This document shows, piece after piece, positions 39,595 through 41,642 of a stretch of DNA of 64,000 nucleotides. A model generated the notes under the pieces. The model made no database searches. It worked only from the letters and a program-made list of their open reading frames with translations, and had not been told where the DNA came from. This DNA comes from Escherichia coli. GTDB taxonomy: Bacteria > Pseudomonadota > Gammaproteobacteria > Enterobacterales > Enterobacteriaceae. The stretch is taken from NCBI RefSeq assembly GCF_013315695.1, contig NZ_CP054353.1; one strand, written 5' to 3'. The stretch's first letter is position 1, and every line of letters starts with the position of its first letter. The position numbers and the translations under genes are program-made.

Positions 39595-40443
39595 TTATGT
39601 GATCGCGCCCTGGTCGTCCCTGACAGTAAATCCCAGTTCATTAGAAATAGCCTGCGCGGTTTCACGCAGTGGTTTCAGGAGATTTTTCTCCCCCACCTGT
39701 TTCAGACGTGATGTCGAAAGCGAAATCGACACGGCGTACGGCACCCGCCCATGAATATCAAACACCGGAACAGCAATACAGGAGACGCCGAGTTCGTTTT
39801 CTTCTCTGTCCATCGCCGCTCCGCTTTCACGAATGTGCGCCAGTTCGTCGAACATCGCGGGCAGCTCGGTAATGGTATTGTGGGTTAACGGCTGGATCTC
39901 ATGCTGATGGCTTTCCCAGTATGACTTCACGTAGTCCGGGTGACCAAACGCCATGTAGATCTTGCCCATTGCGGAACAGTAGAGCGGCATATGCTGGCCA
40001 ATATAGGCACGGGTTCGCAGCATCCCGGTTGTGGGTTCCAGCTTATAAATCAAAATAGCGTGATCGTCTTCGCGGCTGGAGAAGTTAATAGTTTCACCAG
40101 TGGCGATGTTCAGTGCCTCAAGATGCGGAGCGGCGATATGAATGATATTCAGCGAAGACAGCGCCTTCTGCCCGACGGCAATAAATTTGGTGGTCAGGCG
40201 GTAACTCCCTGCGGCGGGCGCGGTGGTCACATAGCCGCAGGACTGTAATCCCTGCAATAAGCGATGGACGGTACTCTTATTTAAACCAGCCAGTTCCGAA
40301 AGATGCGCCAACGGACAACCGTTTGGATAGTTGCTCAAAATCTCAATCAGCATCAACCCGCGAAACAGACTCTGGCTTCCGGCTGGACGCTCTTTTTCCT
40401 GCGCCATCTCGTTCTCTTTTTTTCCCATCACTTCTTTCCCCAT
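39595..40443 (-). CDS. yiaJ: IclR-family transcriptional repressor YiaJ
   Basis: 282 aa, N-terminal HTH and IclR effector domain; divergent from yiaK. Confidence 0.9.
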   Translation of the reverse strand: MGKEVMGKKENEMAQEKERPAGSQSLFRGLMLIEILSNYPNGCPLAHLSELAGLNKSTVHRLLQGLQSCGYVTTAPAAGSYRLTTKFIAVGQKALSSLNIIHIAAPHLEALNIATGETINFSSREDDHAILIYKLEPTTGMLRTRAYIGQHMPLYCSAMGKIYMAFGHPDYVKSYWESHQHEIQPLTHNTITELPAMFDELAHIRESGAAMDREENELGVSCIAVPVFDIHGRVPYAVSISLSTSRLKQVGEKNLLKPLRETAQAISNELGFTVRDDQGAIT

Positions 40444-40519
40444 TTTGTCGCGTCCTGATGGTAGCGCAAAGTGTGCCGTAGTTCACGATCTCGACAGATA
40501 ATTTATAACCACTTGATTT

Positions 40520-40610
40520 TTAAGTTTTTTGAAATTCATCAATCAGATTGCTTTGTTAAAAAGTGATCGATATATTTGAAATCAAGTTTCGTATATTGAA
40601 ATTTTAAGCC
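40520..40610. promoter_or_regulatory. yiaJ-yiaK divergent control region with repeated ATAT(T)TGAAAT motifs (candidate YiaJ operator / promoter elements)
   Basis: TGAAAT at 40530, 40577 and 40597; the latter two lie within ATATTTGAAAT / ATATTGAAAT direct repeats 20 bp apart. Confidence 0.35.
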
Positions 40611-40643
40611 AAAAAAGCGATCAAAAAAACAAGGAAGCCTGGG

Positions 40644-41642
40644 ATGAAAGTGACATTTGAGCAGTTAAAAGCAGCCTTTAATCGGGTCTTAATTTCACGC
40701 GGCGTTGACAGCGAAACGGCTGACGCCTGTGCAGAGATGTTCGCCCGCACCACCGAATCCGGCGTTTATTCTCACGGCGTTAATCGTTTCCCTCGTTTCA
40801 TTCAACAACTGGAAAACGGCGATATCATTCCTGATGCCCAACCCAAACGTATAACCAGCCTCGGCGCAATTGAACAGTGGGACGCTCAGCGTTCGATCGG
40901 TAACCTGACAGCGAAAAAGATGATGGATCGCGCCATTGAACTGGCTGCCGATCACGGTATTGGTCTGGTGGCACTACGTAATGCCAACCACTGGATGCGC
41001 GGCGGCAGCTACGGCTGGCAGGCGGCGGAAAAAGGCTATATTGGCATTTGCTGGACCAACTCCATCGCCGTAATGCCGCCGTGGGGCGCAAAAGAGTGTC
41101 GCATCGGCACCAACCCGCTGATCGTCGCCATTCCTTCTACCCCAATCACCATGGTCGATATGTCGATGTCGATGTTCTCTTACGGCATGTTAGAAGTTAA
41201 CCGTCTGGCAGGCCGTCAGCTCCCGGTCGATGGTGGCTTTGATGATGAGGGCAATTTGACCAAAGAACCTGGCGTTATCGAGAAGAATCGCCGCATTTTG
41301 CCGATGGGCTACTGGAAAGGTTCTGGCATGTCGATTGTGCTGGATATGATCGCCACTCTCCTTTCCGACGGCGCATCGGTTGCCGAAGTCACCCAGGACA
41401 ACAGCGACGAATACGGCGTTTCGCAAATCTTTATCGCCATCGAAGTGGATAAATTGATCGACGGCCCCACCCGCGATGCCAAGCTGCAACGCATCATGGA
41501 TTACGTTACTACCGCTGAACGCGCTGACGAAAACCAGGCCATCCGCTTACCCGGCCACGAATTTACTACCCTGCTGGCCGAAAACCGCCGTAACGGCATC
41601 ACCGTTGATGACAGCGTGTGGGCCAAAATCCAGGCGTTATGA
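40644..41642 (+). CDS. yiaK: 2,3-diketo-L-gulonate reductase
   Basis: 332 aa Ldh_2 family oxidoreductase. Confidence 0.93.

Follow-up and report, generated by a model that had tools for sequence, protein, structure and literature searches.

The closest described system is PlaR (YiaJ) of E. coli K-12, the same protein at the same locus. In the gSELEX screen of Shimada et al. (2019; PMC6958661) the plaR-yiaK spacer gave one of the strongest peaks, and in gel shifts the plaR-yiaK probe (~500 bp) showed the highest affinity of the targets tested. Deletion of plaR raised yiaK mRNA and yiaK-lacZ expression, and ascorbate and galacturonate released PlaR in vitro (PMC6958661). A 21-bp palindromic PlaR box, ATnTGAAACnnnGTT(T)CAnTT, was derived by a motif search on gSELEX targets and was stated to overlap the yiaK promoter (PMC6958661). 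By ChIP-exo, Gao et al. (2018; PMC6237786) detected two YiaJ peaks in the spacer, one of them at the position of RNA polymerase. Binding of YiaJ to the spacer and repression of yiaK are known from these studies at the level of DNA fragments (PMC6958661, PMC6237786).

Suvorova and Gelfand (2021; PMC8222616) distinguished two motif geometries in the IclR family. They counted 32 orthologous groups with three-box sites of alternating direction and 94 with tandem sites spaced by 18-22 nt, took both arrangements as typical of IclR-family tetramers, and related the tandem sites to tetramer binding. Sites for b3575 stand in both of their site lists; all three TGAAAT hexamers treated below were flagged there, and the three-box reading is already published (PMC8222616). 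The operator of the paralogous IclR-family repressor KdgR in Dickeya and other gamma-proteobacteria, typically overlapping a promoter, is likewise an AT-rich GAAA-N5-TTTC palindrome (PMC8222616). PcaU and PobR operators carry a third half-site, an external direct repeat, beside the palindrome, as the present locus has its third box, and PcaU needs it in order to bind, as cited in PMC8222616; their half-sites differ, being of the GTNCG type, and the proteins are activators of aromatic catabolism. In the TtgV-operator complex (PDB 2XRO; Lu et al. 2010, as cited in PMC8222616), an IclR-family tetramer sits on one face of an extended operator, both dimers being bound from the same side. The TtgV and YiaJ proteins are detectably related in sequence (E=2e-16), and the operator of TtgV differs in sequence from that of YiaJ. 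Four grooves are reportedly contacted in the TtgV-operator complex.

In the window (the whole 64-kb stretch of E. coli DNA that was analysed), positions 40444-40643 were the yiaJ(plaR)-yiaK intergenic region, 200 nt long with 34% G+C. Open reading frames, Pfam and RefSeq concurred in making this a divergent control region with the gene of an IclR-family regulator adjoining (Table 1). Residues 91-282 of YiaJ matched PDB 1YSQ, deposited as YiaJ (E=2e-123). A 501-bp query from the locus was 100% identical to E. coli chromosomes and was found in 4991 of 5426 complete genomes, with the flanking genes annotated as yiaJ and yiaK.

Two side observations concerned the locus itself. The yiaJ start codon given by the longest open reading frame and by RefSeq (ATG at 40443-40441, 282 aa) was absent in E. 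coli L001 and in other genera, whereas an alternative ATG five codons downstream (40428-40426, MGKKENEM...) was aligned in most genera, so the downstream ATG may be the true start. In L081, a derivative of E. coli K-12 MG1655 (NZ_CP025268.1, 3742055-3747311), galK lay within the yiaJ-yiaK spacer and interrupted it near window position 40544, ahead of the -35; natural variation was rejected as an explanation of this split match, since galK between yiaJ and yiaK looked engineered.

Table 1. Features of the yiaJ-yiaK control region, and sites predicted earlier for b3575
Feature	Position	Strand	Remarks
yiaJ (plaR), IclR-family repressor gene	39595-40443	minus	ORF; Pfam HTH_IclR and IclR_C; RefSeq yiaJ
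CRP-like site TGTGCcgtagtTCACG	40472-40487	.	CRP core with 2 mismatches; inside block 40456-40492 conserved at 90% or more
Putative IHF site, consensus match AATCAAGTGGTTA (WATCAANNNNTTR)	40506-40518	-	exact consensus match; TTGATTT core conserved
Upstream TGAAAT	40530-40535	+	not conserved outside a few Escherichia sequences; no inverted partner
Putative yiaK -35, TTGCTT	40548-40553	+	TTG start in nearly all orthologous rows; TTGATC, TTGACA, TTGACT elsewhere
Putative yiaK -10, TATATT	40571-40576	+	17 bp downstream of TTGCTT; TATATT or TATTAT across genera; overlaps ATAT flank of box A
Three-box block TATTTGAAATCAAGTTTCGTATATTGAAATTT	40573-40604	.	strongest phylogenetic footprint of the intergenic region
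Box A, TGAAAT, forward (extended ATATTTGAAAT)	40577-40582	+	left arm of the A-B palindrome; 1.7-2.0 bits per column
Candidate yiaK transcription start, approximate	~40584 (40583-40585)	+	8 bp downstream of the putative -10; 60 bp upstream of ATG
Box B, inverted, GTTTCG on + / CGAAAC on -	40586-40591	-	belongs to both the A-B and B-C palindromes; overlooked in the original prediction
Box C, TGAAAT, forward (extended ATATTGAAAT)	40597-40602	+	20 bp from A, 10 bp from B; TG(A/G)AAT in 52/52 distinct cores
yiaK, first gene of the regulated operon, 3-dehydro-L-gulonate 2-dehydrogenase	40644-41642	plus	ORF; Pfam Ldh_2; RefSeq yiaK
b3575 predicted site TtTTatgTcTtTTGAAATT	-127		score 4.02; weak, upstream hexamer (PMC8222616 supplement)
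b3575 predicted site ataTTTGAAATCAagTTTCgCAtaT	-73		score 5.90; A-B site (PMC8222616 supplement)
b3575 predicted site AgTTTCgcATATTGAAATT	-60		score 5.86; B-C site (PMC8222616 supplement)
b3575 predicted site cATaTTGAAATttTAagcCAaAAaa	-53		score 4.40; tandem partner, 20 nt away (PMC8222616 supplement)

Three TGAAAT hexamers had been predicted upstream of yiaK, two of them 20 bp apart, and both the positions (starts at 40530, 40577 and 40597) and the spacing were exact. The two downstream hexamers began 67 and 47 bp before the ATG of yiaK (40644) and lay in the extended repeats ATATTTGAAAT (40572-40582) and ATATTGAAAT (40593-40602). TGAAAT was not enriched in the 64-kb window (57 observed, 49 expected). 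When the 200-nt intergenic region was dinucleotide-shuffled 5000 times, 7.8% of the shuffles had at least three copies of some hexamer within 90 nt, 0.2% had three copies of TGAAAT itself (a post hoc test), and 35% contained an ungapped direct repeat matching at 8/10 positions with a spacing of 18-22 bp. Judged on the single sequence, the repeat hardly exceeded chance. Because none of the three single-sequence tests (hexamer count, shuffles, direct repeat) gave more than weak evidence, significance was argued from conservation across species.

Eighty loci encoding relatives of YiaJ (73-99% identity) were collected from GTDB species genomes; the divergent yiaJ-yiaK arrangement with a comparable spacer was found in 59 of the 80, and these were aligned with MAFFT. 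The best-conserved stretch of the spacer was 40570-40604, where most genera read TATATTTGAAATCAGATTTCGCATAGTGAAATTT. A search with the A-B pattern gave a match in 76 of the 80 loci, including those of Yersinia, Serratia, Pectobacterium, Brenneria, Hafnia and Rahnella, and in 74 yiaJ loci from many Enterobacterales genera the 32-bp block 40573-40604 was almost invariant. Across 52 distinct orthologous cores both downstream hexamers varied little or not at all, and the complete conservation of the one at 40597-40602 (Table 1) was not imposed by the pattern used for locus selection. A position weight matrix built from non-E. coli loci only gave 40573-40604 a score of 48.4 bits, against -3.1 bits for the next unrelated hit in 64 kb.

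That the repeats arose by chance in AT-rich intergenic DNA, as the single-sequence shuffles would allow, is hardly credible: the invariance across genera, the unique matrix hit and the published binding data (PMC6958661, PMC6237786) all stand against it. For boxes A and C the conservation effectively refuted chance; for the hexamer at 40530 chance was the best reading. The latter read TGAAAA or TAAAAA in other genera, and in a 60-sequence alignment its G was common to about 3/10 of the sequences and its last T to about 1/10. On this alignment, the upstream hexamer is probably incidental and not a functional YiaJ half-site. The original prediction, in which the TGAAAT motifs were a candidate YiaJ (IclR-type) operator for yiaK-sgbE, gained support for the downstream pair from the published PlaR box match, from the sites predicted for b3575 and from its place in the best-conserved part of the spacer, but lost the upstream hexamer.

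In seven loci (L022, L024, L029, L039, L044, L047 and L050) the block was unchanged and the divergent gene encoded an ABC-transporter ATPase, not YiaK, indicating that the first gene of the operon or the type of transporter differed there and that the block travels with the regulator and its divergent promoter. These loci came from Phytobacter, Kosakonia, Raoultella, Enterobacter sp. and Affinibrenneria, and their divergent gene product began MAEAAVLSPLLSMRHI(V/I)KRFGG.... Longer spacers occurred in L038 (Enterobacteriaceae MAG UBA3516) and L049 (Phytobacter massiliensis), with a second three-part block nearer yiaK (at ~2140-2190 and ~2185-2235, respectively). In these second copies the A-B palindrome was perfect (TAGTGGAATGCGATTCCACTA and TAATGAAATGTAATTTCACTA) while the third box was degenerate, reading GTAAAAC, which suggests a duplicated operator or promoter.

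The predicted layout, a simple direct repeat, was not upheld: the inverted half-site GTTTCG (box B) lay exactly between the two repeats. Half-sites A, B and C (starts 40577, 40586 and 40597) followed one another in 10-bp steps with alternating orientation, placing all three on one face of the helix. A and B formed the canonical 21-bp palindrome of the PlaR/KdgR type, GAAA-N5-TTTC, centred on 40584, of which the core GAAAYNNNRTTTC had a single match in the 64-kb window (40578-40590). B and C formed a second palindrome, TTTC-N7-GAAA, centred on 40594. Box B columns 40587-40590 were nearly invariant, other genera reading ATTTCGC or ATTTCAC, and in Hafnia the B-C palindrome was perfect (ATTTCAC-ATA-GTGAAAT). 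It is likely that 40573-40604 is the YiaJ/PlaR operator, with three alternating half-sites over the putative -10/+1 region, a feature that earlier predictions and fragment-binding experiments had already brought to light.

A polymorphism was noted at the dyad in E. coli. The window and K-12 had CAAG (GTTTCG arm), and E. coli L001 and nearly all other genera had CAGA (ATTTCG arm, the better palindrome); position 40592 was T in the window versus C in K-12 and in 45 of the 52 cores. Outside the three boxes, G40608 was kept in 51 of the 52 cores though its neighbours varied, and within the Escherichia-Citrobacter-Klebsiella-Enterobacter group an A-run followed by GC (40611-40618) was conserved. 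In Enterobacter, Klebsiella and Citrobacter loci the operator was bracketed by an outer inverted repeat, ATCGCTA...TAGCGAT, in columns 40566-40572 and 40604-40610. It was perfect in Enterobacter and one Klebsiella sequence (nine sequences of the Enterobacter type) and read ATCGTTA...TAACGAT in K. pneumoniae; it was rejected as a general feature, as only 2 of 7 positions matched in the window and it was absent in distant genera.

The only match in 64 kb to the PlaR box ATnTGAAACnnnGTT(T)CAnTT was at 40574-40594, on both strands, with 14 of the 17 specified positions agreeing (3 mismatches). Box A lay within this match and within the b3575 site ataTTTGAAATCAagTTTCgCAtaT (PMC8222616), whereas the published box covered A-B alone and left the conserved box C outside. 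Both palindromes fitted the three-box motif of the IclR family, likewise made of boxes in alternating direction: A-B (TGAAAT-CAA-GTTTCG) had the geometry of group 2 (TGRAACAN1-2TGTTYCA), and B-C (40586-40602) matched group 1 (GKTYCRYW3-4RYGRAMC, WTT-11-AAW type) with 2 mismatches. Box C fell within this match and within the group-1 site AgTTTCgcATATTGAAATT listed for b3575 (PMC8222616). There was no substantive difference from the assignment in PMC8222616, both being computational; the present sample of genera was independent and added the loci with a divergent gene other than yiaK.

The 20-bp spacing of A and C could also reflect two tandem operators, as the original prediction implied, with each ATAT(T)TGAAAT as the left half of its own site: A-B centred on 40584 and C-D centred on ~40604, two helical turns apart and each taken by one dimer of a YiaJ tetramer; box B would then be merely the right arm of the first site. 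We regard this as possible though doubtful. A tandem pair 20 nt apart is listed for b3575 (-73, score 5.90, and -53, score 4.40), and the 20-bp spacing confirmed here falls in the 18-22 nt range of the tandem sites of 94 IclR orthologous groups (PMC8222616). The score of the second site is low, however, and its right arm at 40606-40612 (AAGCCA in the window, AGAGAT or AGCGAT elsewhere) was unlike ATTTCR and poorly conserved except for G40608. Box C paired much better with box B, as ATTTC(G/A)C-ATA-GTGAAAT, the arrangement that was perfect in Hafnia and matched the group-1 consensus. In the alignment of 52 distinct cores no conserved fourth half-site D was found downstream of C (40606-40612), and D was rejected as a half-site. 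Tandem operators would overlap the three-box operator rather than exclude it.

The block adjoined the putative yiaK promoter. A simple sigma-70 scan did not call this promoter because its -35 matched the consensus at only 3 of 6 positions; it was assigned by spacing and conservation, a poor -35 being expected of a CRP-dependent promoter. The 17-bp spacer between -35 and -10 was held in position across genera, and the two hexamers predict a start at ~40583-40585. In agreement with this, Ibanez and co-workers reportedly placed, in 2000, the 5' end of yiaK 60 bp upstream of its ATG, which for the ATG at 40644 we take to be position 40584, and YiaJ is said to have bound, in the same work, to a fragment from -50 to +121. 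With this start, box A would come directly after the -10, the A-B dyad (its centre 60 bp upstream of the ATG) would fall on +1, and box C would lie at ~+14 to +19. The ATAT of the first repeat doubles as the putative -10, so that part of the similarity between the repeats is promoter sequence; likewise, conservation of the 5' flank of box A is partly explained by the -10 hexamer.

Farther upstream, the CRP-like site (Table 1) fits CRP site 1, which in 2000 Ibanez and co-workers reportedly put at about -106 of yiaK, and the putative IHF site fits the modulation of yiaK-S by IHF that the same work is said to describe. CRP control of both yiaK and yiaJ appears in a RegulonDB-derived table (PMC6121374). 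The surrounding sequence, GATGGTAGCGCAAAGTGTG-N6-TCACGATCT (40456-40492), was conserved more strongly and widely than the CRP core alone would need. From its sequence, TACCAT on the minus strand (40464-40459) could be the -10 of yiaJ; the CRP site would then overlap the yiaJ -35, which would fit the reported repression of yiaJ by CRP. A 9-nt perfect inverted repeat (40511-40519 / 40579-40587) was considered as a second operator and rejected, its upstream arm being the conserved TTGATTT of the IHF-consensus site and its complementarity falling to 6 nt in other genera.

Conservation of the block could also come from promoter or leader function, with the flank of box A as the -10 and B-C as a 5'-terminal stem-loop of yiaK mRNA. 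TATATT does overlap the flank of box A, and B-C could pair over 5-7 bp at ~+3 to +19 of the transcript, 92.9% of the alignment cells being pairable. No pair showed a compensatory change, though, and covariation (0.075) was lower than in shuffles (0.090); the seventh pair was broken in 20 of 50 sequences. Both arms were conserved as sequence, as a protein site predicts, the core of box A lay upstream of the start and beyond the -10, and the three-part block recurred as the second copy in L038 and L049. This origin of the conservation is thus very improbable, and B-C as an RNA or DNA hairpin was rejected for want of covariation.

A paralogous IclR-family repressor might also use the block: it could be additionally, or mainly, a site of KdgR acting, for example, on yiaJ expression, which we consider unlikely. 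The KdgR consensus RWWGAAACGNCGTTTCAKKA has the same GAAA-N5-TTTC geometry (PMC8222616, Table 1), and the available text of PMC6958661 reports that plaR mRNA rose in a kdgR mutant, its authors proposing an interplay of PlaR and KdgR. In that same text, however, the genes named as de-repressed in the kdgR mutant are others than yiaK, and deletion of plaR alone strongly de-repressed yiaK (PMC6958661). The block co-occurred with yiaJ in every genus examined, and its central bases were T-CAG-A rather than the C-GNC-G preferred by KdgR, which has another regulon and effector. We know of no conserved third box at KdgR sites.

A separate, canonical KdgR-like palindrome (TGGAACGCCGTTTCA, or CGAAACAGTGTTTCG in Yersinia) was found nearer the yiaJ-like gene in Serratia, Pectobacterium, Brenneria and Yersinia loci (L067-L069, L072-L076, L078 and L080), ~100-130 bp upstream of that gene and at the position of the CRP site in Escherichia-type loci. 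This palindrome counts in favour of the KdgR reading and may relate to the reported KdgR effect on plaR mRNA. The PlaR box, having been derived computationally from targets that also carry KdgR boxes, may in part describe KdgR specificity.

Most probably, the IclR-family repressor YiaJ (PlaR) acts on the yiaK promoter through an operator made up of the two downstream motifs and the inverted half-site between them. Observed directly here were the anatomy of this operator, the degree to which it is conserved, its single occurrence in the window and its linkage to yiaJ. In the proposed mechanism, one YiaJ dimer would bind A-B, and box C would be contacted either by the other dimer of a tetramer or by a dimer in the alternative B-C register. 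YiaJ would then cover ~-10 to +20 and block binding of RNA polymerase or open-complex formation at yiaKp, until an effector on the IclR_C domain releases it. Promoter occlusion is the most likely mode of repression by YiaJ, given that the block abuts the putative -10 and extends across the candidate start site. For the contacted bases, the stoichiometry and the occlusion step, this is what we infer.

The invariance of box C argues for a function of this box and might be accounted for by YiaJ binding in two alternative dimer registers (A-B of group 2 and B-C of group 1), or by a tetramer on three boxes with one DNA-binding domain left free; we hold either to be rather improbable. A free domain could reach the yiaJ promoter region, ~130 bp away, across a spacer bent by IHF. 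If true, alternative registers would give graded or switch-like control of yiaK, and the free domain could account for the autoregulation reported for yiaJ with no need of a second operator. Suvorova and Gelfand put forward alternative dimerization within the IclR family on computational grounds only (PMC8222616), and the E. coli yiaJ-yiaK locus would be a convenient place to test it.

These results fix the YiaJ/PlaR operator of the yiaK-sgbE operon (2,3-diketo-L-gulonate / L-ascorbate-related) at 40573-40604, as probable as stated above and of little import beyond annotation. Their wider interest lies in how an IclR-family repressor reads a three-box site, a question already raised in the literature.
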